Source: a phage. Taken from it: a stretch of 64,000 nucleotides of DNA. This document shows, piece by piece, positions 10,025-63,254 of this stretch. Position 1 is the first letter of the stretch. Each line of letters begins with the position of its first letter. Below the pieces are notes generated by a model. It was not told where the DNA came from. It was given only the letters and a program-made list of their open reading frames with translations, and ran no database searches. The translations under genes and the position numbers were made by a program. The stretch is from the sequence record OZ335964.1. One strand, given 5' to 3'.

Positions 10025-10312
10025 TTAAAACAGTCCTTCCTGTACACCGTAGTAGAGTTCATCGCTGATAATTTCATTAATGCGACGGTGTGCATATTCC
10101 TGATTTGCGAAGTTGTCAGCAAGTTCTACTTTAGTTTCGCCGTCATGAGTCCATTTAGTGATAACTTTACCATCTGCAAATTTGAAGTTGAACTCTTTAG
10201 CTACCGCATCGCGTACCAGACATGCAAACTTGTTGTTGCGGATTGCATTATCGGTTTCGTGTGCAGCGTGAGCAAATTTGTTAACTTTCAGAGTGATAGT
10301 AATGTATGCCAT
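10025..10312 (-). CDS. hypothetical protein
   Basis: 95 aa ORF with cassette promoter and RBS. Confidence 0.5.
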   Translation of the reverse strand: MAYITITLKVNKFAHAAHETDNAIRNNKFACLVRDAVAKEFNFKFADGKVITKWTHDGETKVELADNFANQEYAHRRINEIISDELYYGVQEGLF

Positions 10313-10358
10313 AATTTGATTCTCCTAGTTAGAAAGTGTATCTCGTTTCGATGGGTGT

Positions 10359-10387
10359 ATTATGCTATACACCCGATCCGGTGTCAA
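10359..10387 (-). promoter_or_regulatory. sigma70-type early promoter cassette
   Basis: TTGACA - 17 nt - CATAAT on minus strand. Confidence 0.5.
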
Positions 10388-10394
10388 CAACTTT

Positions 10395-10688
10395 TTATAA
10401 AATAATTTTTTGATATTTTTCTATGATGTTCGTGTAATTCACATCAACCGCTATCACCGTTGCTTCGAATCCACCGTTTAGCCAATGGCTATGGTCATGA
10501 TCGTGAAAGAAACCAAGACCAGTGCGAAGACCTTCTTTATATTCGGCGCGTACATTTAGAGAATCGTCGATAAACAGATAAAACCATGAATTTTTACTAG
10601 GATTGATGATACAACCTTTCAGATTAGGGAGAATATCACGACTAAGAATAAACTTATCACCTACTTTGAACATAATATTAGTCCTCAC
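10395..10688 (-). CDS. HxHW/AVDV paralogue family member 2
   Basis: 97 aa; FYLFIDDSLNV, HDHDHSHW, VIAVDV. Confidence 0.55.
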   Translation of the reverse strand: MRTNIMFKVGDKFILSRDILPNLKGCIINPSKNSWFYLFIDDSLNVRAEYKEGLRTGLGFFHDHDHSHWLNGGFEATVIAVDVNYTNIIEKYQKIIL

Positions 10689-10998
10689 TTATAAGGTCAA
10701 ACCAATTGTTTTTCGCATAATGCTTAATGCGTGCTTGATCTGCTTCCGCTGGTGATAGATTCCATGCAACCACTACAACTTCTGACGCATCGTCATCCGT
10801 TTCTGATACCCAATGATTGTGATTCATACAGTTATTTGCGATCGAGTGAGCAAATGATTTCATCACTGGAGACGTATAATCATAGTAACGGATTTTCAGA
10901 TTTTCATCAACGTACAAATAGATCGTATAAGGTTTATATTCAGTAACCAGTAACAGACAGTTACGCAATTCTGGGAAAATATTTTTAGTTAATTTCAT
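10678..10998 (-). CDS. HxHW/AVDV paralogue family member 3
   Basis: 106 aa; IYLYVDENLKI, NHNHW, VVVVAW; N-terminus similar to member 1. Confidence 0.55.
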   Translation of the reverse strand: MKLTKNIFPELRNCLLLVTEYKPYTIYLYVDENLKIRYYDYTSPVMKSFAHSIANNCMNHNHWVSETDDDASEVVVVAWNLSPAEADQARIKHYAKNNWFDLISED

Positions 10999-11200
10999 AT
11001 TCTAGTTCTCCGTAATATACGGTAATCCATTTTTCTTCATACTTTGTATCTTTCCAACACACAATCCCGTTTACTGTGCAATCTTTGGAATTGACGAATG
11101 ATTCATATTGTTCTGCATCTTCCATCATTGCATGAGCGGTCTTTTCATCGAATATATCGCAGATCGCTTTATATGCTCGATAATCTTTAAATTTGCTCAT
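10985..11200 (-). CDS. hypothetical small protein, tandem duplicate A
   Basis: Starts MSKFKDYRAYK (track ORF has 4 extra codons); paralogue of adjacent 11203..11412 (MSKFKDYKAY...MMEDA). Confidence 0.5.
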   Translation of the reverse strand: MSKFKDYRAYKAICDIFDEKTAHAMMEDAEQYESFVNSKDCTVNGIVCWKDTKYEEKWITVYYGELEYEIN

Positions 11201-11202
11201 AA

Positions 11203-11412
11203 TTAAGACCACTCAAGAGTTTTTGAAAACACATCTATCCATTGTTGAGTATATGCGGTTTCTTTCCATGATACAATACCAGTCGAATAATGGTTTTTGT
11301 TTCCAGAAAAGGACGGGCATTTTGATGCATCTTCCATCATCTTTTCGGCGAACTCCGCGTCATATACCCGCAGGATCTGTTGATATGCTTTATAATCTTT
11401 AAATTTGCTCAT
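11203..11412 (-). CDS. hypothetical small protein, tandem duplicate B
   Basis: 69 aa; paralogue of 10985..11200. Confidence 0.5.
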   Translation of the reverse strand: MSKFKDYKAYQQILRVYDAEFAEKMMEDASKCPSFSGNKNHYSTGIVSWKETAYTQQWIDVFSKTLEWS

Positions 11413-11677
11413 AATTGTTAACTACCTTATCAGCTTCTTTTATTGTTTTTACATCAACTGCGATAATCCGTAAAGGTTCGTCGAAGGTCCACCAATGATC
11501 GTGAATATCGGCTTGTGATTTATCACCAAAGGAATCACGAATATCATTTTTACATTTATAGCTAATGTGACCTTCATAGTCAACATAAAGGTAATTATCG
11601 AAAATCGGCGTTTTTAAGATCATACCGAAAAATCTTTCTTTGTGTGTCTTATCCAGTGTTGCAGTAATTCGCATCAT
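11399..11677 (-). CDS. HxHW/AVDV paralogue family member 4
   Basis: 92 aa; LYVDYEGHISY, HDHW, IIAVDV. Confidence 0.55.
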   Translation of the reverse strand: MMRITATLDKTHKERFFGMILKTPIFDNYLYVDYEGHISYKCKNDIRDSFGDKSQADIHDHWWTFDEPLRIIAVDVKTIKEADKVVNNYEQI

Positions 11678-11689
11678 AATATATTCCTC

Positions 11690-11869
11690 TTAGAAAGGGA
11701 TGGTCATTTCTTGAGCTTGTACATTCTCGTTAGGATTAAACTTCATCCAACCGATATTGTCTACCAGCATATGTACATTTTTATCATATCCTACGTGAGT
11801 AGTCAACACTAAATGTGCTTTACCTTCAACGATGATTTCCATGTACTTCTGAACTTCGATAGCTTTCAT
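11690..11869 (-). CDS. small ORF (59 aa), below track threshold
   Basis: Hand-translated MKAIEVQKYMEIIVEGKAHLVLTTHVGYDKNVHMLVDNIGWMKFNPNENVQAQEMTIPF; RBS GGAGAATCAAAA and promoter cassette directly upstream. Confidence 0.4.
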   Translation of the reverse strand: MKAIEVQKYMEIIVEGKAHLVLTTHVGYDKNVHMLVDNIGWMKFNPNENVQAQEMTIPF

Positions 11870-11902
11870 TTTTGATTCTCCGTTTGTTGTCTTGATGGGA
11901 GT

Positions 11903-11931
11903 ATCTTACTACTCCCTTTAATCATTGTCAA
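11903..11931 (-). promoter_or_regulatory. early promoter cassette
   Basis: TTGACA - 17 nt - TAAGAT; -10 inside GGGAGTA..TACTCCC hairpin. Confidence 0.5.
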
Positions 11932-11934
11932 CTA

Positions 11935-12102
11935 TTATTTGTTAATTTCTGGTGCGTTGCTCGGATAGTAACCTTCTTTAACACCTAGATATTTTGCAAC
12001 CATTCCGGGGATCTTCTGTGCTACTACGATATCGAATTTCAGGTAGTCTTCACCGTGGTTTGCTACAATGTATGCTTCGCATTCTGCTTTAGTCTGGAAC
12101 AT
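11935..12102 (-). CDS. hypothetical small protein
   Basis: 55 aa from MFQTK with RBS AGGAGAATAAAA; track ORF's extension uses a GTG that overlaps the promoter -10 TATAAT. Confidence 0.45.
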   Translation of the reverse strand: MFQTKAECEAYIVANHGEDYLKFDIVVAQKIPGMVAKYLGVKEGYYPSNAPEINK

Positions 12103-12135
12103 TTTTATTCTCCTATATCTCGTTGGTATGTGTGC

Positions 12136-12164
12136 ATTATAGGGGATCACCGATCCCCTGTCAA
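12136..12164 (-). promoter_or_regulatory. sigma70-type early promoter cassette
   Basis: TTGACA - 17 nt palindromic spacer GGGGATCGGTGATCCCC - TATAAT on minus strand. Confidence 0.6.
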
Positions 12165-12169
12165 CAACT

Positions 12170-12463
12170 TTATAATGCTTTATATGCGTATTTCATAAAT
12201 TTGTCTGCCACTTCATTGGCATGTTCAGATTCTACGCCTGATTCGAGAACAATAGCTAGGTCGGTTTCGTCATTCCCGCCGTACCAATGATTTGATGTTC
12301 GATTTTTTTCAATTGGAAATTGGTCACTTTTATCTGTGCGACAAAATACATCTAAATGCTCGTCGATGTAAAAGATCCAATCCTCATAAAGAATAACGGT
12401 ATTAGCCAGATTTTTATTACCTTCAACGAAAGGTTCGGCTACAAACAAATTAGTATGTTCCAT
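12170..12463 (-). CDS. HxHW/AVDV paralogue family member 5
   Basis: 97 aa; IFYIDEHLDV, SNHW, LAIVLE. Confidence 0.5.
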   Translation of the reverse strand: MEHTNLFVAEPFVEGNKNLANTVILYEDWIFYIDEHLDVFCRTDKSDQFPIEKNRTSNHWYGGNDETDLAIVLESGVESEHANEVADKFMKYAYKAL

Positions 12464-12520
12464 AGTATTTTCCTCAATTTGTGGGAGAGTATTGCCCCTC
12501 CCGATGATTGTTATATTATA

Positions 12521-12841
12521 TCACACAAAATGGCGTGTCAATGCTTCTTTTGCGGTTCCGCTAAGACTTTCGATCTCGCCTGGCATAACATCAACTGCCA
12601 GAACTTCTACAACATCCTCTGATCCTAACCAGTGAGTATGACCTTTGTAGAACTTGATAACCAGACTACCTTCCTCGTCCCATTTAACGCTATCGCTAGC
12701 CCACCACACATCACCGTCGATAAAGTTGATGTAAAGCACACTACGCCACATTGAATTAATTACTTTCAATACTGCGCCTTTCATCTCTTCCACGGTGTGG
12801 TCTTCCATTTTGAAGACCTCACCTACCTGAACTTTTGCCAT
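12521..12841 (-). CDS. HxHW/AVDV paralogue family member 6
   Basis: 106 aa; LYINFIDGDV, HTHW, VLAVDV. Confidence 0.55.
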   Translation of the reverse strand: MAKVQVGEVFKMEDHTVEEMKGAVLKVINSMWRSVLYINFIDGDVWWASDSVKWDEEGSLVIKFYKGHTHWLGSEDVVEVLAVDVMPGEIESLSGTAKEALTRHFV

Positions 12842-20967: not shown

Positions 20968-21186
20968 CTACTTTTTAATGACAAGTTCGAATTTTGCTAC
21001 CTTACGTCCTCGTTTATTGAAAGCAACCCACGGACGGTTTTCAATGTAGAACAATTCTTCGCCAATAATGAATACTGGCTGATTGTAAAGGCGACCCATC
21101 AGGTCACGCTGGCGAATGGTAGTAGATTCGTATACTTCGCCTACTACAAAGTGTTTGCTGATAGAGTCGGTGCAAGTAAATTTCAT
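20968..21186 (-). CDS. hypothetical small protein
   Basis: 72 aa; C-terminus VAKFELVIKK resembles 47700..47906 (VAKFEIIE). Confidence 0.5.
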   Translation of the reverse strand: MKFTCTDSISKHFVVGEVYESTTIRQRDLMGRLYNQPVFIIGEELFYIENRPWVAFNKRGRKVAKFELVIKK

Positions 21187-30133: not shown

Positions 30134-30730
30134 TTAATTGCTTGTCAATACTTTATCAATTATATCTAACAGTTTTGGCTTTCTATTTTCAAATTCTAAC
30201 ATCTCTTCGGGAGAAATGTCAACTACTTCTGTTTTGTTGAAAAAGTTTGGGTCTATAGCATCAGCAACAAAGTTTCTCGCAAGTGCTGCCGCTTTCTCAT
30301 GAACATATATTCCCAAATATATCAACTTCTTTCTTTCGACCTGAATATTGGCAACATATTTACCATCTCGTTTATAAAGACTAACACCGATATATTCAGA
30401 CGATCGACCTTTCTGTTTACCCATATTTCTTGAGTTTTGTTGCTCGTTCGCATCTCTCAAGTTTTCAATCCTATTATCTGTTATAATTCGGTTAACATGG
30501 TCAACGTATTTTGGCATGTATCCATGATGCATAAAGAAAATTATTCTATGCTCTTTATGATGTTTACCATCGATACACACCAATCTGTATCCATGACTAG
30601 GATTAACTCCACCCGCTCTAGATCCGACTTTATGCTTTCTGTTTGTCGATATCTTGCGAATCAGCTTACCGTTATCATATTTAAAGAGTTCATGACAACG
30701 AGCATACAATTCAGGATCATATGTTTTCAC
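30134..30730 (-). CDS. HNH homing endonuclease with AP2-like domain
   Basis: 198 aa; HNH_3 motif VDHVNRIITDNRIENLR plus AP2-like SEYIGVSLYKRDGKYVANIQV; sits between 59 and 32. Confidence 0.7.
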   Translation of the reverse strand: MKTYDPELYARCHELFKYDNGKLIRKISTNRKHKVGSRAGGVNPSHGYRLVCIDGKHHKEHRIIFFMHHGYMPKYVDHVNRIITDNRIENLRDANEQQNSRNMGKQKGRSSEYIGVSLYKRDGKYVANIQVERKKLIYLGIYVHEKAAALARNFVADAIDPNFFNKTEVVDISPEEMLEFENRKPKLLDIIDKVLTSN

Positions 30731-43091: not shown

Positions 43092-43331
43092 ATGGTCTAT
43101 AATATCGTCATTGGTGCTTTGTCTAATTTCGGAATGAAATTATTGTCAAAGTTAATTAGTGAAAAGATGCTCACTAAAATTTTCTTCTACTGCGCTCGTC
43201 GTCTTGCGGCGTATACCAATACGCCAATTGATGATCGTTTTGTGGAAGAACTTTATAAGGAGTTTAATAAAGATCAGTCAGAAGATAGCAACGAGCAAAA
43301 TAAAAATAGTGATAGTCAAGTACCTAAATAA
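43092..43331 (+). CDS. hypothetical small protein
   Basis: 79 aa; hydrophobic N-terminus, acidic C-terminus; occupies the position of T4 gene 38 but is too small and shows no adhesin-like Gly-rich motifs. Confidence 0.4.
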   Translation: MVYNIVIGALSNFGMKLLSKLISEKMLTKIFFYCARRLAAYTNTPIDDRFVEELYKEFNKDQSEDSNEQNKNSDSQVPK

Positions 43332-43364
43332 GAGTACACTGTCATAGTTATTTTAGGGCATTAT

Positions 43365-44021
43365 ATGCAAGTTTCTGAAAAAGAGAAAGACTTTGCTATC
43401 TCAAATGTCCTGCGCGCTATTTTCACAACTAAAAGCACGGAGTTGCTCGTACTTCGTGTTTTTGCTGCCGTCGTGTTGTCCATATTAGCATTTGTCGTTT
43501 ATAGCAAAAACGAGTTATTTGCCTTGTATAAAGAGACTCGTTATGAGACTTATGCTCACGTTCTCCAGGTAGAGAAAGACCGCAATTTTGATAATGCAGC
43601 ACAGGAGCAGTTACAGATAGTTCATGTGTCGGCTGATGCCGATTTTTCTGCTGTTTTTAGTTTTCGTCCGAAAAACCTAAATTATTTTGTTGATTTGGTG
43701 GCATATGAAGGAAAGCTACCGCATACAATCGATGAAAAAAATTTAGGCGGATTTCCTATCAATAAAACGAGTGAAGAATATCGTAGGCATCTTTTAGGTA
43801 AATCCTATTTTACCGATAAAGATTTCCAGTATATTCCGTCGAGGGAGAAAAAATTAGAGAATATCGATATAGGGTTTATGTATTCTTGTCCTATATTCAA
43901 TCTCGATAATGTCTATTCTGGTAGTATCGCCATTGCATGGAAGAATAAACCGGATATTGACATTGAGAATTTAGATACTCTTTGCAATCAATCTGCCAGA
44001 ATCCTCGGAAGGATTAGATAA
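43365..44021 (+). CDS. t: holin T
   Basis: 218 aa (T4 T 218 aa); LEQLQIVHVSADADFSAVFSFRPKNLNYFVDLVAYEGKLP and MYSCPIFNLDNVYSG match T4 holin almost residue-for-residue. Confidence 0.85.
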   Translation: MQVSEKEKDFAISNVLRAIFTTKSTELLVLRVFAAVVLSILAFVVYSKNELFALYKETRYETYAHVLQVEKDRNFDNAAQEQLQIVHVSADADFSAVFSFRPKNLNYFVDLVAYEGKLPHTIDEKNLGGFPINKTSEEYRRHLLGKSYFTDKDFQYIPSREKKLENIDIGFMYSCPIFNLDNVYSGSIAIAWKNKPDIDIENLDTLCNQSARILGRIR

Positions 44022-44025
44022 CTTA

Positions 44026-44058
44026 AAGGGGAAGCCTTTCGGCCTCCCCTTCTTTTTT
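44026..44058 (+). terminator. rho-independent terminator after t
   Basis: GGGGAAGCC-TTTC-GGCCTCCCC hairpin followed by TTCTTTTTTATT. Confidence 0.65.
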
Positions 44059-44305
44059 ATTGGCGCATAGAAGCCCCTGAATCACATTTTGACGCTGTAT
44101 GATGAAAACATGTAGCGTACCAGTCATCGGCTTGTTTGTCTTCGTCAGAGAACGCATAGTTTCGTTGTATGCCGTTTTCTACTTTGACCAGTACAATAGC
44201 TGTTTCTGGAAGATCAATCAATCGGACAAAATCACCATCTTCCCACTCTACACGAGCAATATCATAACCCATCTCAAAATAAACAATCGCTTGCTCTAAT
44301 CTCAT
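44057..44305 (-). CDS. hypothetical protein
   Basis: 82 aa ORF. Confidence 0.4.
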   Translation of the reverse strand: MRLEQAIVYFEMGYDIARVEWEDGDFVRLIDLPETAIVLVKVENGIQRNYAFSDEDKQADDWYATCFHHTASKCDSGASMRQ

Positions 44306-44634
44306 TCTGGAAACTTCCCGTAAATGTTTTCTGCCAACATACGCGCATCGCTAATGATATCTTTCATGCTATGACCGTAGTGTTCAGCCATTGAGTTGAC
44401 ACAATCAACAAAGAAATTATAACGTCGACGGTTTAAGATTTCTTCTCTGTTATAGTTTTCATATTTGACGGTCGAGTGTGCTTTCTCTATTGCCTTGATC
44501 GCTATATTGACTTCATTGATAATGGTTTTAGCATTGTATGCGCCACGACGGATCAGGATATTTGTCAATTCTCTTGCAATATCTTGCAATTCTTCATATT
44601 CATGTTCAAACATAATCAACCTCTCAAAATACAA
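44302..44634 (-). CDS. hypothetical protein
   Basis: 110 aa ORF, coupled to neighbours. Confidence 0.5.
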   Translation of the reverse strand: MYFERLIMFEHEYEELQDIARELTNILIRRGAYNAKTIINEVNIAIKAIEKAHSTVKYENYNREEILNRRRYNFFVDCVNSMAEHYGHSMKDIISDARMLAENIYGKFPE

Positions 44635-44637
44635 TCC

Positions 44638-44970
44638 TTACAGATGAAAACCTGTTACAATTACCGCATCGATCATACCGCTAGGGATAAACGGTTCACC
44701 CTCTTTTATCTCAACTTTGAATTGATGCCATTTCGCTAATACTTCTTCCGGTACACCCAGAGATTCGGCATCTGCTTTAGTTTCATCCATAATCCAACTA
44801 GGCTGCATGAGAGCATAGTTTACATAGTCCATTTCTGGGGTCATGTCATCAATGTTAATATATTTGCAGTTGACGCGTTTCAGAATTTCAAATTCTTTAT
44901 TGTCAACCTGTACCATGTATAATTCAGTAGTTTCTGGAATCAGTTCCCACACAATCAGTACATTTTTCAT
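44638..44970 (-). CDS. hypothetical protein
   Basis: 110 aa ORF. Confidence 0.5.
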   Translation of the reverse strand: MKNVLIVWELIPETTELYMVQVDNKEFEILKRVNCKYINIDDMTPEMDYVNYALMQPSWIMDETKADAESLGVPEEVLAKWHQFKVEIKEGEPFIPSGMIDAVIVTGFHL

Positions 44971-44978
44971 AGTTCACC

Positions 44979-45347
44979 TCACTTAACAAAGATTTTCTTT
45001 AATGCTTTCAGGATCGTTGCTTCCGGCGCTTCTTCCGGTGGAGGAAGCAATTCTACCACTTCCTCTTCCAACTCGATATAGTCTACCAGATATTCTACAT
45101 AGAATGCAAGTGCTTCCATGAAATTAAATGCTACATCCGATTCACCACAAGCGCCTACATGCATTGTATAAACATCACTGCGATCAAGTTTGTGGATGCT
45201 CCCCAGATAGTTCCGGTTATACCAGACTTCCCACACTTTCAGCTTTCCAGTTTTGGTTGCTGTTTTATAATCGGTTTCGTAGTGGTGCAATTGACGTTGC
45301 AGATCATTGATAATAACACATTTTTCGTAATTGTTTTGAATTTCCAT
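44979..45347 (-). CDS. hypothetical protein
   Basis: 122 aa ORF. Confidence 0.5.
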   Translation of the reverse strand: MEIQNNYEKCVIINDLQRQLHHYETDYKTATKTGKLKVWEVWYNRNYLGSIHKLDRSDVYTMHVGACGESDVAFNFMEALAFYVEYLVDYIELEEEVVELLPPPEEAPEATILKALKKIFVK

Positions 45348-45357
45348 GATGTAATCC

Positions 45358-45549
45358 TCACTTATCGTTAAGAAGTTCTAAAACTTTCTGTCGTACTTTG
45401 TCAATATTAGTTGATTCAAAAACTGTACGGTATCCCCAGCTTTGACCGTATGAGCGCGAGCAATCCCCATATCCCCATTGTTCAACCTGATAGTATTCAA
45501 GGAATGGATGTTGCCGAACTATGATACCATCACGATTAAAAATTACCAT
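45358..45549 (-). CDS. hypothetical small protein
   Basis: 63 aa ORF. Confidence 0.4.
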   Translation of the reverse strand: MVIFNRDGIIVRQHPFLEYYQVEQWGYGDCSRSYGQSWGYRTVFESTNIDKVRQKVLELLNDK

Positions 45550-45572
45550 AATATAATCCTCAAGTCAACAAC

Positions 45573-45854
45573 TTATTTTCGGTTGTACTTCTGCCACTTT
45601 CGGTAATACTGCTTGTAAACCTGTTTTGCGTTTTCACCATCTTTACTATACATGTTATCTACCATCAAGTCAATAAGACCTTCCGGTGTCTGGTAGTTCC
45701 CCGCTCGAATAAGTTCTTTAATTAAAGTGTCCTGATGATCTTTGTATACTACGTTAATGATGGTCTTTTCTGCTTTCTTCGTCCCGATCATCCGGTGATT
45801 AGCTTTCATCGCATCCCACCAATCTTTTGTGATCTTCATGTTATTGAATTGCAT
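45573..45854 (-). CDS. hypothetical protein
   Basis: 93 aa basic protein. Confidence 0.45.
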   Translation of the reverse strand: MQFNNMKITKDWWDAMKANHRMIGTKKAEKTIINVVYKDHQDTLIKELIRAGNYQTPEGLIDLMVDNMYSKDGENAKQVYKQYYRKWQKYNRK

Positions 45855-45865
45855 AATTTAACCTC

Positions 45866-46624
45866 TTACTTGCACACGTATTGATCTACATCAATTGCGC
45901 CACCGAATGTAGGATGACGTTTTTCAAATCGAATAGTTCCGTCGTTTGGTTCGAAAACGGAGTATTCATATAGATCTTTCTTGCCAACATTCTTATAAAA
46001 CCCGCCTTTAGTCATAACGGTTTCTTGTACGTTTGCTTTGTGTACGTTGTATTCGTCAATGTATACAAAATCAACCATCTTCCCATTTTTAATGGTTACT
46101 TTAAGATCTCCTGGTTGGTTTCCATATTTTGCATACAGTGGAGCTTCTTTAATTTTGGTGGAAATTCCATCTTTCATACTCCACTCATAACGAACGGTGC
46201 ATTGATAGGTAAAAGTTTCGACCTTCGGTTCTTCCACCACTTTTTCTTCCTGTTTCGGTTGTTCTTCGTCAACCTTCACGGAAGTCTCTGAATCGCTTTC
46301 TGACGCGGTTTCTTCTTTAGGTAATACATTCATCAAGTTTTGGATTTGAGCGTTGTATACAGCCTCCAGTGGCTGAATCTGCCCGATATTGATCATTGTA
46401 TCACGAACAGTTTTATTCCAGTTGCGTTGCTCTTGTTTCAGAGACGGATCAATCTTAACAGCCTTAACATATACTTCATGAAGTTTCGAATCCAGTGCGG
46501 AGATTGACTCATTAGCACAAATAAACTTCTCTGATTTGGTAGTGGCTTTAGCGCAATCAAAGGACGCAGCATTAGCACCGAAAGCAGTAGCAGAAAGAAC
46601 GATAGCAGCGATAATGTTTTTCAT
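45866..46624 (-). CDS. secreted protein with LprI/DUF1311-like N-terminal domain
   Basis: 252 aa from MKNIIAAIVLSATAFGANA (signal peptide); ASFDCAKATTKSEKFIC...LDSKL...QRNWNKTVRD pattern; track ORF's extension overlaps the promoter. Confidence 0.5.
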   Translation of the reverse strand: MKNIIAAIVLSATAFGANAASFDCAKATTKSEKFICANESISALDSKLHEVYVKAVKIDPSLKQEQRNWNKTVRDTMINIGQIQPLEAVYNAQIQNLMNVLPKEETASESDSETSVKVDEEQPKQEEKVVEEPKVETFTYQCTVRYEWSMKDGISTKIKEAPLYAKYGNQPGDLKVTIKNGKMVDFVYIDEYNVHKANVQETVMTKGGFYKNVGKKDLYEYSVFEPNDGTIRFEKRHPTFGGAIDVDQYVCK

Positions 46625-46658
46625 AATATATTCCTCAGTGTTTTGTCTTGATGGGAGT

Positions 46659-46687
46659 ATCTTACTACTCCCCTGTTCTGGTGTCAA
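46659..46687 (-). promoter_or_regulatory. early promoter cassette
   Basis: TTGACA - 17 nt - TAAGAT; -10 within GGGAGTA..TACTCCC hairpin. Confidence 0.5.
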
Positions 46688-46706
46688 CTACTTTTTAAAT
46701 TTCTTC

Positions 46707-46850
46707 TACAGTAAAGTCTTCAATGTTGTTGTGCTCGGCGAACGTTGCCAGACCAGCATCCCATGCATCATCCTCAGAGAAGAATACACCGTAACGTTCA
46801 TATCCTTTAGCGCCTTCAAATTTAACCATTAATTTATGAGTATGTTTCAT
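46707..46850 (-). CDS. small ORF (47 aa), below track threshold
   Basis: Hand-translated MKHTHKLMVKFEGAKGYERYGVFFSEDDAWDAGLATLPSTTTLKTLL; RBS GGAGAATCAAAA and promoter cassette upstream. Confidence 0.35.
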
Positions 46851-46882
46851 TTTTGATTCTCCTTCGTTGTCTTGATGAGTTT

Positions 46883-46911
46883 AGTATAGGGGATCGCCGA
46901 TCCCCTGTCAA
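46883..46911 (-). promoter_or_regulatory. sigma70-type early promoter cassette
   Basis: TTGACA - 17 nt palindromic spacer GGGGATCGGCGATCCCC - TATACT. Confidence 0.55.
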
Positions 46912-46920
46912 CCGCTATTT

Positions 46921-47133
46921 TTAATTTTTACCCGCTCGTGCATTAATACGCATTTTCTGCATAGCCATGATCTGGGTTATTGCTTCTTCTTTACGTTCTT
47001 GTGTGATAACGTGACCAGATTCCGCAAACTCTCCAGCGACTTCTTCCACGATCTCGCGAATTTGAGAACGTCCAAAGATGCGGTTTCCTTCGTAGCTCAT
47101 AAACTCGGTTACTACTTGCTCGATAGATTTCAT
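46921..47133 (-). CDS. hypothetical small protein
   Basis: 70 aa from MKSIEQVV (RBS GGAGAATCAC); track ORF has 15-codon extension. Confidence 0.45.
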   Translation of the reverse strand: MKSIEQVVTEFMSYEGNRIFGRSQIREIVEEVAGEFAESGHVITQERKEEAITQIMAMQKMRINARAGKN

Positions 47134-47172
47134 GTGATTCTCCTTTCGTTTGGTATGGGAGTATGTTACTAC

Positions 47173-47201
47173 TCCCATTTCTTTACGTCAACAACTATTT
47201 T
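47173..47201 (-). promoter_or_regulatory. early promoter cassette
   Basis: TTGACG - 17 nt - TAACAT; GGGAGTAGTAACATACTCCC hairpin spans -10. Confidence 0.4.
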
Positions 47202-47425
47202 AAATTATTTTCGACCTTCATCCATTCCGCGTATTCTTGCGCGGCTACTTTCGGATTTAGTCCGTCTTCGTACATTGCTTCAAGTAATTCTTCGTCGGTG
47301 GGCTTATACCCTAGATAAGCCTCCACCTGATTTTTCCAAATTTTATACCAGTTCATATTATCACCAGTCAAGAGCGCGTGTCTCTGCGTCTTCCCATGCT
47401 TGGTCCATAACAGCCTTGAAAACAT
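47195..47425 (-). CDS. hypothetical small protein
   Basis: 76 aa ORF; an internal start at MNWYKIW (47356) would remove the 65-nt overlap with the upstream gene. Confidence 0.4.
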   Translation of the reverse strand: MFSRLLWTKHGKTQRHALLTGDNMNWYKIWKNQVEAYLGYKPTDEELLEAMYEDGLNPKVAAQEYAEWMKVENNLK

Positions 47426-47633
47426 ATTCTAAAGTATCATCTTTAGAGAATCCGAAGACCTTAGACGGAATATCTTCAATTGCTACTCCCGCAACTTCTG
47501 CATTACGCGCTTGGCAATAATGCAACTCTAAGTTATCGAGATAGCGACCGCCTAATTTCTCCATATCATCCCAGCATTTCCAGTAACCTACTTTATCTGC
47601 AATTGCCAACACTTTGCTGTTTTTGTTGCTCAT
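47361..47633 (-). CDS. hypothetical protein
   Basis: 90 aa from MSNKNSKVL (RBS GGAGAATCAAAG); track ORF's extension overlaps the promoter. Confidence 0.45.
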   Translation of the reverse strand: MSNKNSKVLAIADKVGYWKCWDDMEKLGGRYLDNLELHYCQARNAEVAGVAIEDIPSKVFGFSKDDTLEYVFKAVMDQAWEDAETRALDW

Positions 47634-47664
47634 CTTTGATTCTCCTTTTGTTTGATATGGGAGT

Positions 47665-47693
47665 ATATTACTACTCCCATTATTCACTGTCAA
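47665..47693 (-). promoter_or_regulatory. early promoter cassette
   Basis: TTGACA - 17 nt - TAATAT; GGGAGTAGTAATATACTCCC hairpin spans -10. Confidence 0.45.
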
Positions 47694-47699
47694 TAGATT

Positions 47700-47906
47700 T
47701 TATTCGATTATTTCAAATTTTGCTACCGGATCACCGTTTCGTTTGGTTGCAGTAAGTTTCTGTTTGTCAAAGTAAAACCAAATATAGTCACCATGAACTA
47801 CATCAAATGTGTTTCCGCTATTGTCCGTGAATACATCAACATCATAATCACACCCAACACTAAAGCTATAATTGATGTGATCGGTTTCAATGCAACGTAC
47901 TTTCAT
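47700..47906 (-). CDS. hypothetical small protein
   Basis: 68 aa from MKVRCIETD (RBS AAGGAGATTC); C-terminal VAKFEIIE resembles 20968..21186. Confidence 0.45.
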   Translation of the reverse strand: MKVRCIETDHINYSFSVGCDYDVDVFTDNSGNTFDVVHGDYIWFYFDKQKLTATKRNGDPVAKFEIIE

Positions 47907-47937
47907 TTTTGAATCTCCTTTTTGTTTCACTGTGTGT

Positions 47938-47966
47938 ATTATGCAATGCTGGATTATGGAAGTCAA
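47938..47966 (-). promoter_or_regulatory. sigma70-type promoter
   Basis: TTGACT - 17 nt - CATAAT on minus strand. Confidence 0.4.
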
Positions 47967-47980
47967 ACAACTTTTCAAAT

Positions 47981-48006
47981 AAAAAAGCCGACCACAAGGA
48001 TCGGCT
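47981..48006 (-). terminator. rho-independent terminator
   Basis: GCCGA..TCGGC hairpin with minus-strand T-run (plus A6). Confidence 0.55.
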
Positions 48007-48016
48007 TAATAGTCAG

Positions 48017-48412
48017 TTACTTACTAAATTTCTTTTTGGCTTCGTCTACTGCATGAGATGCCAGCACCGCTGCCGCATGTGCACTTTTATCTGTGTTGCA
48101 TAGAACACCCAGATAAACATCACGCCAAAGTTTAATCATCTCGTAGATCATATCAATATCATTTTCTTGTTTGTTGGCGATGCTATTCGTCGTTATCTGG
48201 TAAGGCAACGGTTTGATCTGTACTGGTTCCGCCATCGGGCTAATCGGTTTCGGATCGGTCATAATAGGTGCTGTTGTTGGTGATGTTTTCCATACGTCAT
48301 TATTCCACGGTTTAACGGTTGTACCGTATATTTTATAAGGATTTTTGTCTGGATCAACCATCCATGTATGATGGATACCTAAACCATTTGAAGTGATGCG
48401 TCGTTCAGTCAT
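48017..48412 (-). CDS. hypothetical protein
   Basis: 131 aa ORF. Confidence 0.5.
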   Translation of the reverse strand: MTERRITSNGLGIHHTWMVDPDKNPYKIYGTTVKPWNNDVWKTSPTTAPIMTDPKPISPMAEPVQIKPLPYQITTNSIANKQENDIDMIYEMIKLWRDVYLGVLCNTDKSAHAAAVLASHAVDEAKKKFSK

Positions 48413-48617
48413 GTTTTACCCCCTCTGATAATTCTTTCATCAAGCTGTCGATCTTTGCTCTGTGTTCTGGCGTGTTTGTCATCTCTGCTAATTTGCTCAG
48501 AGATTCACCGGTGATCCGGTTGGATTCTTCCAGTGTTTCAACGACAATTGGCACAATCTTTTTATTGTTGTACAGAAATGCAATATAACCGCCTTCTGGA
48601 TATTCTTTCATAATCAA
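48405..48617 (-). CDS. hypothetical small protein
   Basis: 70 aa, coupled to gene 52. Confidence 0.45.
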   Translation of the reverse strand: MIMKEYPEGGYIAFLYNNKKIVPIVVETLEESNRITGESLSKLAEMTNTPEHRAKIDSLMKELSEGVKHD

Positions 48618-49993
48618 CCCTTCTTAAGTTCTTTAAGATCTTTCTTATATTCCTTCATTGCGGTCGTCTTTGTCCAATACTCATATTCACTATGATGTTT
48701 ATCGGCATCTTTGACCAGTCGATCATACTCTTCTTGAGTAACGCTATACAATGGCATAGAAACGAGCTTATCGGCATATGGACGCAGTTTTTCATGTTCA
48801 TTGATGGATTGCATTACCTCGGCCTTTTTCTTGCCCTGTAGCTCGATTTCGCCCTTAATTACGCGGTCGATAAATTCGGCTTTAGCCATTGCATAATTGT
48901 ATGCTTCCAGTGTTTCGGCTTGCATCAATTCAATGCGTTTATCGACATACCCTAAGCGGATTTCGACGAATCGACGAATCAGGTCGCTAGCTTTCTCGAA
49001 TACTTCAACTAAACCACGTTCATTAACCACTACGATATTCTGGGCTACTAACTGCGTTAGTTTAAAATCCTTCATGATTTGCTCATGTCGAGCGGATTCA
49101 TCTTCGCTTTTGAAATAATCTCGTTTCAGTGTTACTTCAAATCTGAAACCATCCTTAGAGCAACGGTCATTATACGATACAATCAGATCTTTTTCTTCCA
49201 GTGCATCCAGCACCGCTACATATTCTTCACGGTCGAACTTATAAGGAACTTCCGTTATTGTCAGCTTAGTCTTGCCATTTAATTCATATGTACCCTCAAG
49301 AATCACGCCATCGCGATCATCTCGCGGGATAACTTTACCCGTGAATTTCGGGAATTGAACACTAGGTTCTTTATCCAGTTTTCCGGCAAGTGCTAGCTCT
49401 GTGCATTCAATGAGGCTTTCCAGTGAATGCGGTAAAATGTCAGTTTTATACCCTGTAGCAATACCACTAATACCATTAGCCAATACCATTGGCACAACTG
49501 GCAAGTAGAAGGCTGGCGGGATGTGTTCCAGATCTTCGTGCTTAGGTGCGCAATTCATATCTTTATAGATTTTAAAGAAGTTTTCATGCACACGAGCAAA
49601 GATATAACGTGCCGCACCTGCTTTCTGGACTAAACGCGATCCGAAGTTACCTTGACCGTCAAGCAGTGGAGTATTATTGCTCCATGTATTCGCCATGAGT
49701 GATCCGGCTTCTACGGCATTAGTTTCCCCGTGGTGATAACCCAACTCAGCAACACCAGATCCAATATCTGCCATCTTACGGAATTTCTTACGGTCGCCTT
49801 TACTCTTTTGAAGTGCACATTCCATAACAAAGCGTTGCACTGGTTTAAGCCCATCTACCAATTGAGGAATCCCGCGTTCCTCGGCAGAATAGATCGCATA
49901 TTCCTTAGCTTCATTATGTACAATGCTTTCAAGGCTGCGGTAAGTAAATGTGTTTACAATTTGACTAATTTTATCCATCTTCACCTCATACAC
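48614..49993 (-). CDS. 52: DNA topoisomerase II medium subunit (GyrA-like)
   Basis: 459 aa (T4 gp52 442 aa); GyrA-type LVDGLKPVQR and HHGE motifs. Confidence 0.85.
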   Translation of the reverse strand: MYEVKMDKISQIVNTFTYRSLESIVHNEAKEYAIYSAEERGIPQLVDGLKPVQRFVMECALQKSKGDRKKFRKMADIGSGVAELGYHHGETNAVEAGSLMANTWSNNTPLLDGQGNFGSRLVQKAGAARYIFARVHENFFKIYKDMNCAPKHEDLEHIPPAFYLPVVPMVLANGISGIATGYKTDILPHSLESLIECTELALAGKLDKEPSVQFPKFTGKVIPRDDRDGVILEGTYELNGKTKLTITEVPYKFDREEYVAVLDALEEKDLIVSYNDRCSKDGFRFEVTLKRDYFKSEDESARHEQIMKDFKLTQLVAQNIVVVNERGLVEVFEKASDLIRRFVEIRLGYVDKRIELMQAETLEAYNYAMAKAEFIDRVIKGEIELQGKKKAEVMQSINEHEKLRPYADKLVSMPLYSVTQEEYDRLVKDADKHHSEYEYWTKTTAMKEYKKDLKELKKG

Positions 49994-50348
49994 GCTTACA
50001 AATCACATTCTTTACTTTATCAGATTTATCAGCCCAATCCAATAGCCATTTTAACGGAAGGATTGAAACAATAAACGGGGCAGCAATCAAAGCAAACATG
50101 ATACACCGGATAATCAGGAAAACGCAAGTGACAAAACTAGCGATAGTGATCCCGACAAAACAAAATACCATAGAAAACAGAGTAATGATATAGAAAGGCC
50201 AGAATACCCACTCCCGCATCTTAACGCCTTTGTATTCTCTGAATTGCTTAAAATCTACAAACAACTCTCGGATAGACGCGTACAGGACCGAAAAATCATC
50301 TTTCATTGCTCTGAATGAGCAATCTTCTATTTTAGAATGACCTAACAT
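49986..50348 (-). CDS. membrane protein, unknown function
   Basis: 120 aa with two long hydrophobic segments. Confidence 0.5.
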   Translation of the reverse strand: MLGHSKIEDCSFRAMKDDFSVLYASIRELFVDFKQFREYKGVKMREWVFWPFYIITLFSMVFCFVGITIASFVTCVFLIIRCIMFALIAAPFIVSILPLKWLLDWADKSDKVKNVICKRV

Positions 50349-50657: not shown

Positions 50658-50682
50658 TAAGAAAGGCCGCGCAAAGCGGCCT
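50658..50682 (-). terminator. hairpin terminator
   Basis: GGCCGC-GCAAA-GCGGCC hairpin downstream of 50690..51016. Confidence 0.5.
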
Positions 50683-50689: not shown

Positions 50690-51016
50690 TTATTGTTCTA
50701 CAGTATAACCGTTGTTTTCAAGCCATGCAATAACAATCTTTTCACCAATTTCATCGAGCATTTCATCAGAACCATATTCTTTGATGAAAGTCGATGGATC
50801 ATTATTGCTTACTACGTGCTGGATCACAACATGTTCAGGAATTGCGTCTAGCAGTTCGCTATGATCATACTCATTAACGATATCTTCAACACTAACATTA
50901 TTAACCAAATCAACATCATCCATAGTCACAGTAACGCGACCGGACGGACGCAGTGAATATTGGCTACTTTCAACTTCAACATGTGCACTTTCGCAAGTAA
51001 CTTTCATATCAACCAT
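50690..51016 (-). CDS. hypothetical acidic protein
   Basis: 108 aa, strongly acidic. Confidence 0.5.
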   Translation of the reverse strand: MVDMKVTCESAHVEVESSQYSLRPSGRVTVTMDDVDLVNNVSVEDIVNEYDHSELLDAIPEHVVIQHVVSNNDPSTFIKEYGSDEMLDEIGEKIVIAWLENNGYTVEQ

Positions 51017-52084: not shown

Positions 52085-52216
52085 TTATTTTGCTTCTACA
52101 ACCTTGCGGATTGTGCGGTCTGATACATTATAGATTCGTGCCAGTTCGCCTTTAGTCAAGCCGCGAGCGTATTGTTTACGGATGGTTTCTTTCTGGATAG
52201 CGGTCAGTTTAGTCAT
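52085..52216 (-). CDS. small helix-turn-helix protein (43 aa), below track threshold
   Basis: Hand-translated MTKLTAIQKETIRKQYARGLTKGELARIYNVSDRTIRKVVEAK; sits between rIIA stop and rIIB start. Confidence 0.4.
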   Translation of the reverse strand: MTKLTAIQKETIRKQYARGLTKGELARIYNVSDRTIRKVVEAK

Positions 52217-55425: not shown

Positions 55426-55989
55426 TCAACTAAAATTTAAAGATGCAAACTCCCCGTGATGAATTTTTGCATATTCATCATATGCTCTAGCGGCTTCCTC
55501 CTGAGTAGCAAACGATCCTATGTATTTTCTGTATCCGTTTATCCTTATTTGTGCTTGCCACGGTCTTTTGCTAGATCCTTTGCGATGAGTAACACCATTA
55601 TATATGCTCGTGCACCCGTCCATTTTCTTTTTATTGTACATGTTTTGTTGTTGTGTTGCCTCCCGTAAATTTGGTGGATTGTTGTTTTCTGGATTCCCGT
55701 CTATGTGGTCTATTACCTTAACCTGTGTTCCATATTCAAGAAACCAGACAATTCTATGTACAAGATATGTAGATGTTCTCTTTTTAACCTTATTGTAAAC
55801 ATCTATTGCCAAATGACCGTAATTTAACTTTTTTGTTTTTACTTTATCACCGACTCGGTAGAAATATCCCTCTGGTAGACCATTAAAAGACGGACTATTT
55901 GTTTTGTGATATAGAACACCTTCCGTGTGTTCAAATCTGCGTTTTAATTCCTCTTGAATTTCAGTATTCCAAAATTTCGCACTTTTCAT
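55426..55989 (-). CDS. HNH homing endonuclease with AP2-like domain
   Basis: 187 aa; HNH_3 motif IDHIDGNPENNNPPNLR..QQQN plus AP2-like SIYNGVTHRKGSSKRPWQAQIRINGYRKYIGSFATQEEAARAYD; immediately downstream of gene 39. Confidence 0.7.
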   Translation of the reverse strand: MKSAKFWNTEIQEELKRRFEHTEGVLYHKTNSPSFNGLPEGYFYRVGDKVKTKKLNYGHLAIDVYNKVKKRTSTYLVHRIVWFLEYGTQVKVIDHIDGNPENNNPPNLREATQQQNMYNKKKMDGCTSIYNGVTHRKGSSKRPWQAQIRINGYRKYIGSFATQEEAARAYDEYAKIHHGEFASLNFS

Positions 55990-60572: not shown

Positions 60573-60886
60573 TATCCTAAAATCCTCACCTTGCGAACAC
60601 AGATAGTATTGAGTTCTCGCCGTACCCGTTCTTTTTCATATTCAGGAATTTTGTATTCTATACCATCCCGAACAATTTCAGAAGACCGGATTATACCAAA
60701 TTTTCGTTTAGGCACAACCTTGTATTTCGGTTCACCTGCCAATAGACTCTCACAATAATCTATCTGATCACACATTGACGCTAAAGCTGCATCATGTGTT
60801 TCGCAAGTTAGGACGCGACCTTTCGCGTCCACTGAGTATTGAAAGAATCCGTCTTTATCACGATAACATACAGCAAATACATGCAT
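60572..60886 (-). CDS. hypothetical protein
   Basis: 104 aa, coupled to dda (ATGA-type overlap). Confidence 0.5.
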   Translation of the reverse strand: MHVFAVCYRDKDGFFQYSVDAKGRVLTCETHDAALASMCDQIDYCESLLAGEPKYKVVPKRKFGIIRSSEIVRDGIEYKIPEYEKERVRRELNTICVRKVRILG

Positions 60887-61641
60887 TATAAACCTACCTT
60901 CGCTTTCATCAATTCAATCCACGACGCATCAATCGGAAGCCCGTATTTCACGCGTTCTTTTTGTGCTGGCGTTAAGTTCTCATACTTAGAAAGAGATTCA
61001 ATCAAAACGCTGGTATATTTTAGCACGATTTCGGTATTGTTTGCAATAGCCTTAAGTTTTTCCTCTTTCTTGTTGATTTCGCTAAGGGCTTGCTTGAGAT
61101 CTGCAATTTTCTGATAACGTTCTTCCATACGGAAGAGAGTATTTTTAATCGCTCGCTCGGCTGCCTCTGCTTTCTCCGGTTCGTTGTGCTTTTTGTGGCG
61201 CTCGATTGCTAATTTCTTTTCTTCGATTGCCATTTCCTGATTTTTGATGCGATTCTCGTTAAGTTCGATCCACTCTATGTACTTCGCACGTAGGGCAATT
61301 TCATCATCAGAAAGTTTACCGTTAGTTCCTAGTTCTTGGATCTCTTTAAGAGATTCGATAGTGTGATTACCACGGAAAGAATTGTATTTCAGTTTAACCG
61401 GAATCACATTTCCATCAACATAGCCCAGATTGCAATCAATGCGCTCTAAGGAGAGTCCATCATCACCTTCACCAAACTCCTCACCTGAATATGCGCAATG
61501 AGTCTGGCGATAGATGTTACGCACAGTGACTAAGCTCATAGAGAAGTCTTTGTTACGACGAGAAGCGCCAGCCATGATAGAGTTCAAACGGAAAACAACC
61601 AGCGCCAATTCTTCGTTAGATTTAAAAGCAAACAGTTTCAT
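60886..61641 (-). CDS. hypothetical protein (position of T4 srd)
   Basis: 251 aa; N-terminal Cys/His-containing region, C-terminal coiled coil; assignment by position only. Confidence 0.35.
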   Translation of the reverse strand: MKLFAFKSNEELALVVFRLNSIMAGASRRNKDFSMSLVTVRNIYRQTHCAYSGEEFGEGDDGLSLERIDCNLGYVDGNVIPVKLKYNSFRGNHTIESLKEIQELGTNGKLSDDEIALRAKYIEWIELNENRIKNQEMAIEEKKLAIERHKKHNEPEKAEAAERAIKNTLFRMEERYQKIADLKQALSEINKKEEKLKAIANNTEIVLKYTSVLIESLSKYENLTPAQKERVKYGLPIDASWIELMKAKVGL

Positions 61642-62324: not shown

Positions 62325-63254
62325 ATGAACTATAAACGTATTTATGATAACCTGATTGAACGTGCTAAGACTAGAACTATCGACGGATATACAGAAAAGC
62401 ATCACATCATACCACGTTGTATGAATGGAAGCGATGATGATAGCAATCTAGTTAGACTCACCCCAGAGGAACATTACATTGCTCACCTTCTGTTAGTTAA
62501 GATTTACCCAGATAACAGTAAATTGGTTTATGCTGCAAATATGATGTGCGTTTCTTCTGATTCACATAATGGAGAAAGACAGTCAAATAAACGTCATGGT
62601 TGGTTGCGTAGAAAAATGGCAGAGGCACATAGTAAAAGAATCCGCGATAGAATGGAGAACGATCCTGAATATAGAGCTAAGGTTTCGGAATGGGCTAGAA
62701 AAATGGGTAAAGCCATGAAAGGAGTTAAGCGAGGACCGGAATTTAGCAGAAAGTTGGCAGAAAGAAACAGAAATACCGTGATGAAAGAAGAAACTAAACG
62801 TAAAATCGGGGAAGCCAACAAAGGAAGGAAACGTACAGAAGAATATAAAAGAAAACATAGTGAGCGGTATAAGGGTGAAGGTAATCCGATGTATGGTAAA
62901 CGAGGAAAGGAACATCCGGCATATGGTACTAAACCGTGGAACAACCAAACATCATTTGTTGAGCAGAAAGCATGGTGGCGGTTCGCTGGCATGTTCTATG
63001 ACTGGTATCAGATGGATATTGACCGTGGGAAACATAAACGCCACGGTCATAAAAGAATGCTTGATGAATTGGGTTTTGTTGGTTGGCGAGAAAAAGAGCC
63101 AGCCGCAGCAAGACGATCAATTGAAATGTTTGCTAAAGGCTGGAATCCTTATGAAGACCAAGAATGGTTAGATTATATTAATACCCGCTTTCCAAACGAC
63201 GATAGTTTTCCGCGTTCTTCAACATATACAAAACAAACAAATCCTTTGCAGTAA
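62325..63254 (+). CDS. HNH homing endonuclease with NUMOD3-like repeats
   Basis: 309 aa; EKHHIIPRCMNGSDDDSNLVRLTPEEHYIAH (HNH) and repeated basic HSKRIRDRM / KRKIGEANKGRK / HSERYKGEGNPMYGKRGKEH motifs; only + strand gene in this block. Confidence 0.7.
   Translation: MNYKRIYDNLIERAKTRTIDGYTEKHHIIPRCMNGSDDDSNLVRLTPEEHYIAHLLLVKIYPDNSKLVYAANMMCVSSDSHNGERQSNKRHGWLRRKMAEAHSKRIRDRMENDPEYRAKVSEWARKMGKAMKGVKRGPEFSRKLAERNRNTVMKEETKRKIGEANKGRKRTEEYKRKHSERYKGEGNPMYGKRGKEHPAYGTKPWNNQTSFVEQKAWWRFAGMFYDWYQMDIDRGKHKRHGHKRMLDELGFVGWREKEPAAARRSIEMFAKGWNPYEDQEWLDYINTRFPNDDSFPRSSTYTKQTNPLQ

Follow-up and report, generated by a model that had tools for sequence, protein, structure and literature searches.

In phage T4 the chromosomal slot bounded by t, the holin gene, and by gene 52, which encodes the medium subunit of topoisomerase II, holds asiA, arn and motA in early-strand orientation, together with asiA.1, arn.1, arn.2, arn.3, arn.4 and motA.1 and with Mot-box promoters, and MotA and AsiA of T4 appropriate the sigma factor. 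For the related phage RB49, Nolan et al. 2006 (PMC1524935) state, with reference to Desplats et al. 2002, that neither a motA orthologue nor a consensus for middle promoters could be found and that the early consensus agrees with mapping of early-transcript 5' ends; AsiA is listed in that paper only for RB69, 44RR, Aeh1 and KVP40. In this study we analysed the corresponding t-to-52 interval in a 64,000-nucleotide stretch of phage DNA (sequence record OZ335964.1), and this whole stretch is referred to below as the window.

RB49 and phi1 are also the phages for which PeSL (promoter-early stem-loop) cassettes have been published, and promoter activity, terminator activity and mini-circle formation were shown for PeSLs of these phages other than the copies considered here (Arbiol et al. 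2010, PMC2839356). A PeSL combines the -35 and -10 boxes of a sigma-70 promoter with a G/C-rich stem-loop between the boxes or over the -10 (Arbiol et al. 2010; Comeau et al. 2014, PMC4122927). A stop codon lies upstream and a Shine-Dalgarno sequence with an ATG downstream, the neighbours are orphan genes in hyperplastic regions, and insertions and deletions occur at the cassettes. We consider it very probable that the t-to-52 interval of the window is a variable (hyperplastic) early-gene region of this RB49-like (Krischvirus) kind, served by sigma-70/PeSL promoters, subject to gene turnover at the cassettes, and devoid of AsiA, MotA, Arn, Ndd, DenB and any Mot-box signal.

Gene content and relatives of the interval

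By nucleotide identity and gene order the window comes from an RB49-like T4-type coliphage (genus Krischvirus). Positions 43300-50100 gave 59 matches among phage records at 90-97% nucleotide identity, all but one of them over at least 80% of the length, with JK32 at 96.9%, Brandy at 96.1% and RB49 at 95.1%. RB49, Brandy, JK32 and SSG23, the four relatives used for detailed protein comparison, are assigned to Krischvirus in the records whose taxonomy line was read. The annotated gene order of RB49 runs from the tail-fibre genes through dc5, t, RB49p255-p268 (hypothetical), gene 52, three hypothetical genes and rIIB to a 43-amino-acid (aa) open reading frame (ORF) and rIIA, and the window has the same layout around the interval. 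The t-to-52 intervals of RB49 (RB49p255-p268), phi1, JSE and other members of Krischvirus share this gene order and, for most ORFs, 93-100% protein identity with the window; their flanks (t, 52, the three ORFs and rIIB) are alike, and asiA and motA are absent from them as well.

Between t and gene 52 (44057-48611) we found 14 co-oriented ORFs on the minus strand, of 51-252 aa when counted from their ATG starts and with hardly any spacers between them. Most have a Shine-Dalgarno sequence and the stop and start codons of several overlap. Every one of the 14 matches a PHROG family (1e-17 to 1e-156), and all recur in the four relatives with the sole exception of ORF12, which is missing in RB49; the 14 ORFs are therefore real genes and not chance ORFs. 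ORF1 and ORF4, which were searched across the collection, are each present in 59 phage records at 95-100% identity, a set of the same size as that of the DNA matches to the region.

None of the T4 genes in question could be found among these ORFs. Pfam scans, even at E<=1, and PHROG scans of 17 ORFs, the 14 together with the three between gene 52 and rIIB, detected no AsiA (PF09010, phrog_1166), MotA (PF09114 and PF09158, phrog_1345), Arn, Ndd (PF06591) or DenB (phrog_1360). The T4 proteins, used as positive controls, were recognised by Pfam at 1e-42 (AsiA), 9e-62 (MotA_activ), 2e-69 (MotCF), 1.5e-91 (Ndd) and 8e-56 (Arn), and by PHROG at 1e-41 to 2e-98 (AsiA, MotA and DenB, the last at 4e-97). 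Since Pfam holds no DenB model, the test for DenB depends on PHROG and phmmer. When 16 T4 proteins encoded from t to rIIB were compared by phmmer (--max) with the window and the complete RB49 genome, both as stop-to-stop fragments of at least 30 aa in all six frames, rIIB alone was recovered. For the genome type as a whole, a Pfam scan of about 200 early-strand ORFs of 40-330 aa, called with strand-domain restriction and joined by GS linkers, found none of the five families at E<=0.01; these ORFs came from the window and from the part of RB49 outside its coverage, and 'Serglycin' matches were disregarded as artefacts of the linkers.

More remote relationships were sought with custom hidden Markov models (HMMs) built from AsiA of eight phage lineages (identity down to 28%) and MotA of seven. 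Run with --max against the six-frame fragments these returned noise only, the top hit being one of 13.9 bits within DNA polymerase. Comparison of alignments of the ORFs with those of AsiA and MotA by hhalign gave probabilities of 0.1-4.3% (MotA, at most 0.7%), and the control, AsiA of Pseudomonas phage Astolliot against T4-group AsiA, gave 95.8%. ORF13 and ORF14 were considered as MotA and MotA.1 and rejected, as neither shows similarity by Pfam, PHROG, NCBIfam or hhalign (ORF13 against MotA, 0.3%). An NCBIfam scan of ten ORFs, including ORF3, ORF5, ORF6, ORF11, ORF13 and ORF14, gave no matches, and ORF15, ORF16 and ORF17 between gene 52 and rIIB match neither Ndd nor DenB by Pfam, PHROG or phmmer.

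A preliminary description of this DNA had reported a run of small ORFs plus a 252-aa secreted protein from t to 52, with no AsiA or MotA recognisable among them, and only three ORFs between 52 and rIIB, with no ndd or denB. All of this agrees with what we found, down to the exact number of three, and searches at five levels (Pfam and PHROG scans of the ORFs, phmmer, the Pfam scan of early-strand ORFs, custom HMMs and hhalign) brought to light no diverged motA, asiA, ndd or denB in the window or in the RB49 genome. Its further claim, that the T4 interval has been replaced, holds in part: asiA, arn and motA are absent, but ORF4 keeps a member of the T4 arn.4 family in the same position. ORF4 and T4 arn.4 share phrog_1594 (3.1e-25 and 1.1e-26, respectively) and both lie between motA/52 on one side and asiA/t on the other, and the GenBank note to RB49p259 reads 'similar to T4 12.8kD in AsiA-MotA region'. 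Pairwise BLASTP gave no alignment of ORF4 with arn.4, so the relation is one at profile level only. With a relative of arn.4 retained in place, the T4 interval has not been wholly replaced. What the two intervals have in common is thus the slot, the early-strand orientation and the arn.4/ORF4 family, while AsiA, Arn, MotA, asiA.1, arn.1, arn.2, arn.3, motA.1 and the Mot-box promoters belong to T4 and not to the window.

Promoter cassettes and gene turnover

Mot-box promoters, taken as TGCTTtA followed after 11-13 nucleotides (nt) by TAnnnT upstream of middle genes, occur in the window at chance level. The strict pattern TGCTTNA-N11-13-TANAAT has one match in the 64 kilobases (kb), in a late-gene context, against 0.22 expected, and the loose pattern has 11 against 9.6. 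The sigma-70 pattern TTGACA-N16-18-TANNNT occurs 32 times across the window against 3.6 expected, a nine-fold excess reached in none of 100 shuffles, and 31 of these 32 sites are on the early strand. The t-to-52 interval itself has five complete sigma-70 promoters (-35 at 47966, 47693, 47191, 46911 and 46687), in which TTGACA, TTGACG or TTGACT is followed after 17 nt by TAAGAT, TATACT, TAACAT, TAATAT or CATAAT. They follow the Escherichia coli consensus, unlike the promoters at which MotA and AsiA act by sigma appropriation in T4.

Four of the five promoters overlap a stem-loop, which accords with the earlier statement that several of the ORFs have promoter cassettes of their own. Those at 47693, 47191 and 46687 share a 55-nt repeat whose hairpin, GGGAGTAG..ACTCCC, covers the -10 box. 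The cassette at 46911 is of another type (TTGACAGGGGATCGGCGATCCCCTATACT), found again at 5923, 8339, 12136 and 13073, and a truncated PeSL-like remnant at 45557-45578, upstream of ORF5, is tied to 47180-47201 by a repeat (D14). Judged by this anatomy, which is the same as in RB49 and phi1 down to the subclasses, the promoter cassettes of the region are the published PeSL elements; we see no essential difference between them, and the activity of the copies here is predicted from their sequence.

Comparison with the relatives places gene turnover at the cassettes. The ORF12 cassette, which is extra in the window, is deleted in RB49 with breakpoints in direct repeats at 47630-47666 and 47903-47939, the cassette leader, and Brandy and SSG23 each have about 0.5 kb of additional ORFs inserted exactly at the 47191 cassette. 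Compared with RB49 the window also lacks RB49p256.1 and p257 (a paralogue of ORF2), and its alleles of ORF2 (53% identity) and ORF6 (51%) are divergent. The identity of ORF6 rises to 78% with SSG23 and to 98-100% with Brandy and JK32, ORF14 varies from 70 to 94% among the relatives, and ORF3, ORF4, ORF5, ORF7, ORF11 and gene 52 are 95-100% identical throughout. The pattern of insertions and deletions fits the published model in which orphan genes are shuffled by recombination between PeSLs.

Transcription programme and alternative explanations

Because no homologue of asiA, motA, arn, ndd or denB was found and Mot boxes are at chance level, the set of transcription and host-takeover genes differs from that of T4. 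The preliminary description had already pointed to a different middle-transcription and host-takeover repertoire; the homologue searches and promoter counts support it on this, and it is a published property of the RB49 group. The absence of motA and of middle promoters was therefore already known from Nolan et al. 2006, and the cassettes are covered by the PeSL papers. Our own additions are small and at the level of annotation: ORF1 is assigned to the Tad2-like family, and ORF7 is described as having a constant and a hypervariable part.

Published work on RB49 and phi1, together with T4 biology, provides the basis for a possible mechanism. Unmodified host sigma-70 RNA polymerase would transcribe the cassettes right after infection, the stem-loops would attenuate read-through, and recombination between the repeated cassettes would shuffle the orphan genes. 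The programme would have two stages, early and then late via gp55, gp33 and gp45, without sigma appropriation, so that just two promoter classes would be expected, the sigma-70 consensus and the late TATAAATA. RB49 is annotated with gp55, gp33, gp45, Alt, ModB, Srd, RpbA and DsbA, and gp33, DsbA and RpbA also match Pfam models. The products of the region (ORF1, ORF7, ORF4 and the orphans ORF2, ORF6 and ORF14) would be accessory host-interaction factors and not transcription factors, their most likely targets being the cell envelope and the defences of the host, and not transcription.

Several points weigh against an RB49-like variable region of this kind. A non-homologous anti-sigma factor or activator could be present among the 11 ORFs that have no assignment. 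The ORF2 locus is a third variable spot, at which RB49, JK32 and SSG23 have a second paralogue (about 30% identical) beside a diverged ORF2 allele (53-74%), and it has no PeSL boundaries. Promoter and terminator activity in the interval is inferred from sequence and from the work on RB49 and phi1, the genome beyond the window was examined in a relative, RB49, and the labels given to ORF1 and ORF7 come from domain matches that are only slightly above the Pfam cutoffs.

The first of these points can be extended into an explanation of its own, in which one or more orphan ORFs are a sequence-unrelated substitute for AsiA or MotA that remodels sigma-70 or shuts down early promoters. From T4 it is known that strong consensus early promoters must be silenced once late transcription starts, and there are candidates in suggestive places: ORF13 and ORF14 follow gene 52 at the position of motA with neither a promoter nor a terminator in between, and members of the ORF2 family lie near that of asiA. 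ORF2 is modelled as a small helical bundle, and the rapid evolution of ORF2, ORF6 and ORF14 is of a kind known from host-interaction proteins. Nevertheless, we think a substitute unlikely. Neither by sequence nor by profile do the ORFs resemble AsiA or MotA, and the RB49-type Alt, ModB, Srd, RpbA, gp55, gp33 and DsbA are kept and may suffice as modifiers of RNA polymerase. Nolan et al. (PMC1524935), citing Desplats et al. 2002, also describe RB49 as a phage without an identifiable middle-promoter consensus, whose early consensus agrees with the mapped 5' ends.

It might also be argued that this region and the T4 interval are orthologous along their whole length and that asiA and motA are present here, having diverged past recognition. 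The synteny of the flanking t, 52, rIIB and rIIA with T4 would suit this, and the link between ORF4 and arn.4, visible to profiles but not to BLASTP, implies that orthologues in the interval can be very diverged. AsiA proteins of Pseudomonas and Aeromonas phages (28-40% identity) are, however, easily detected where the Krischvirus ORFs reach a probability of at most 4.3%; a profile of ORF2 run against 1.84 billion proteins found no AsiA-like intermediates, the interval has no 211-aa two-domain ORF, and Mot boxes are absent, all of which makes hidden orthologues very improbable. Still harder to credit is a region of mostly regulatory or junk DNA in which the many small ORFs arose by chance. Several of them are indeed very short (51-70 aa) and without a known domain, but each of the 14 has a PHROG match at 1e-17 or better, all are on the same strand and have Shine-Dalgarno sequences, stop codons overlap with starts and hardly any spacers are left, and the reading frames are kept in the four relatives even where identity falls to 51-78%. 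An RB49-like variable early-gene region remains the explanation that we prefer.

Products of the interval and neighbouring features

ORF1 matches the Pfam model PF11195 (Tad2-like) with an E value of 3.9e-6 and 27.7 bits (cutoff 25) over profile positions 1-71 of 73, and P0027, a close homologue of ORF1, has a precomputed assignment to the same family. It is present in 59 phage records at 95-99% identity and is called 'hypothetical' in every annotated record listed. Thoeris signals through gcADPR, a molecule that Tad2 proteins sequester (Yirmiya et al., bioRxiv 10.1101/2023.05.01.538930). ORF1 resembles these anti-Thoeris sponges in being phage-encoded, in its size (82 aa against 89 aa) and in its match to the Pfam model; it differs in being very diverged, and sequence and profile searches of solved structures in the PDB, Tad2 chains included, gave no match. 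ORF1 is thus a candidate anti-Thoeris factor that may act as a gcADPR sponge. Direct PDB sequence searches with ORF2 and ORF7 were empty or gave noise. A protein of RB49 annotated as 'RNA ligase', 57B (60725-61189), matches Pfam Acb1 (anti-CBASS) at 2e-50, and with ORF1 it would provide the lineage with two candidate anti-signalling proteins. We found no literature linking Krischvirus to anti-defence genes.

ORF7 begins with a Sec-type signal peptide, MKNIIAAIVLSATAFGANA/AS, which ends in ANA/AS and has neither a cysteine at +1 nor a lipobox, so that a soluble periplasmic protein is predicted. A helical LprI/DUF1311 domain (PF07007) with conserved cysteines scores above the Pfam cutoff, and the AlphaFold model shows a helical domain joined through a disordered acidic linker to an eight-stranded beta domain (pLDDT about 90). 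The first 135 or so residues are about 99% conserved, also between phage and E. coli copies, and the last 115 or so are hypervariable, with only C142, G153 and C251 invariant. Homologues are found among chromosomal 'LprI family' proteins of E. coli, one of which is a neighbour of hicAB, in an island that resembles a prophage and contains remnants of phage genes and transposases. Like the LprI protein of Mycobacterium tuberculosis, which has LprI and MliC domains, and Salmonella ScwA (PMC7933661), ORF7 would be secreted and has an LprI/DUF1311 domain with conserved cysteines, and like the former it has a small second beta domain after the LprI domain. Unlike them it is not a lipoprotein, and its barrel is hypervariable, has no sequence match to MliC (PF09864) and is structurally no nearer to PliC or PhiA than unrelated barrels are. 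An MliC/PliC-type lysozyme inhibitor was considered for the C-terminal domain and is left as speculation, the resemblance of the modelled fold being weak and non-specific.

One conceivable, though rather doubtful, view of ORF7 is that it belongs to an undescribed polymorphic periplasmic family of Krischvirus and E. coli islands, in which a constant module for delivery or anchoring, made up of signal peptide, LprI domain and acidic linker, would carry a hypervariable, disulfide-closed barrel that binds a fast-evolving target, for example the cell-wall hydrolase (tail lysozyme) of rival phages. The T4 protein Spackle is a precedent for superinfection exclusion, and ORF7 would, if this were true, be a superinfection-exclusion factor analogous to it.

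Apart from ORF1, ORF4 and ORF7, the ORFs obtained no functional assignment from Pfam or PHROG and by these comparisons are lineage-restricted orphans. In its C-terminal part the ORF2 family keeps an invariant motif, (A/T)EN(I/V)(Y/H)GKFP(E/K), with identity elsewhere down to about 30%, and is represented by one or two tandem paralogues in each relative (156218-156678 in RB49). ORF12 and a 72-aa ORF at 20968-21186 (-) have in common an MK..C start and a VAKFE(I/L) C-terminus, and they may be paralogues in a small beta-rich family scattered through variable regions. The coordinates of the interval and its borders are collected in Table 1.

Table 1. Borders, ORFs and predicted signals of the t-to-52 interval and the adjoining stretch up to rIIB, in window coordinates.
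Feature	Position	Strand	Remarks
Gene t (holin), left border	43365..44021	+	Pfam Phage_holin_T 4.9e-61; 98.6-100% identical to t of RB49, Brandy, JK32 and SSG23
G+C-rich hairpin between convergent t and ORF1	44025..44052		AAGGGGAGGCC-GAAA-GGCTTCCCCTT; read from sequence; likely a bidirectional terminator
ORF1, 82 aa, Tad2-like (DUF2829)	44057..44305	-	Pfam PF11195; phrog_1048 2.4e-18
ORF2, 103 aa, fast-evolving orphan family	44302..44613	-	Conserved C-terminal motif LAENIYGKFPE
ORF3, 110 aa, no functional assignment	44638..44970	-	phrog_4658 4.2e-40; no Pfam or NCBIfam match
ORF4, 122 aa, remote relative of T4 arn.4	44979..45347	-	phrog_1594 3.1e-25
ORF5, 63 aa, no functional assignment	45358..45549	-	phrog_6957 1.2e-42
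ORF6, 93 aa, fast-evolving orphan	45573..45854	-	phrog_15915
ORF7, 252 aa, predicted secreted LprI-domain protein	45866..46624	-	Signal peptide; Pfam LprI/DUF1311
PeSL cassette, predicted ORF7 promoter	46651..46705	-	TTGACA 46687-46682, 17 nt, TAAGAT; hairpin GGGGAGTAG..ACTCCC over -10; repeat family D1
ORF8, 51 aa, no functional assignment	46695..46850	-	phrog_19699 6.3e-41
PeSL cassette TTGACAGGGGATCGGCGATCCCCTATACT, predicted ORF8 promoter	46883..46911	-	Hairpin GGGGATCGGCGATCCCC within spacer
ORF9, 70 aa, no functional assignment	46921..47133	-	phrog_14966 2.7e-48
PeSL cassette, predicted ORF9 promoter, insertion hot spot	47155..47209	-	TTGACG 47191-47186, TAACAT; hairpin GGGAGTAG..ACTCCC
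ORF10, 53 aa, no functional assignment	47195..47356	-	phrog_8655 4.6e-28
ORF11, 90 aa, no functional assignment	47361..47633	-	phrog_7287 1.8e-38
PeSL cassette, predicted ORF11 promoter	47657..47711	-	TTGACA 47693-47688, TAATAT; hairpin
ORF12, 68 aa, mobile cassette gene	47700..47906	-	phrog_9122
Putative intrinsic terminator, then promoter	47938..48007	-	Terminator 48007-47985 + T-run; promoter TTGACT-17-CATAAT 47966-47938
ORF13, 131 aa, orphan at the position of T4 motA	48017..48412	-	phrog_15644; no Pfam or NCBIfam match
ORF14, 68 aa, orphan	48405..48611	-	phrog_15105; start overlaps gene 52 stop codon
Gene 52 (topoisomerase II medium subunit), right border	48614..49978/49993	-	99% identical to RB49 gp52
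ORF15, 120 aa, hydrophobic membrane-type core	49986-50348	-	Between 52 and rIIB; phrog_16033, function unassigned
ORF16, 97 aa	50351-50644	-	Between 52 and rIIB; phrog_14759, function unassigned
Hairpin between ORF16 and ORF17	50664-50682		Read from sequence
ORF17, 108 aa, acidic	50690-51016	-	Between 52 and rIIB; phrog_14049, function unassigned

Some features elsewhere in the window were also recorded. Between rIIA and rIIB, at 52085-52216 (-), lies a 43-aa helix-turn-helix ORF (RB49p274) that resembles the N-terminal helix-turn-helix of rIIB (phrog_609 positions 756-795; Pfam CENP-B_N 7e-6) and looks like a stand-alone copy of that N-terminus. Three ORFs resemble homing endonucleases. One, of 309 aa with a NUMOD3 motif, is at 62325-63254 (+) inside a minus-strand early region, and the matching interval of RB49 is about 0.9 kb shorter; the other two, at 30134-30532 and 55426-55989 (-), are HNH_3 + AP2 ORFs among early genes, with RB49p040 as their annotated relative in RB49. 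A 180-aa early ORF at 5959-6501 (-) contains GmrSD_N/DUF262 (Pfam 2.7e-18), a domain known as the N-terminal one of a type IV restriction enzyme. At 9667-12841 (-) there are at least five paralogous small ORFs in which an HxHW motif is followed by a V/I-rich strand (e.g. HDHSHWL...VIAVDV), with PeSL promoters interspersed, and these appear to be a locally amplified orphan family.

The finding adds nothing on how RB49-type phages switch off early transcription, and its value is in the annotation of the group. In the Krischvirus records examined, the gene that comes directly after t can be described as a Tad2-like candidate anti-defence gene, and the 252-aa ORF7 as a member of an LprI-domain family with a hypervariable barrel that is shared with E. 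coli islands. Taken together, ORF1 and ORF7 suggest a role for the region in defence and counter-defence, not in transcription.

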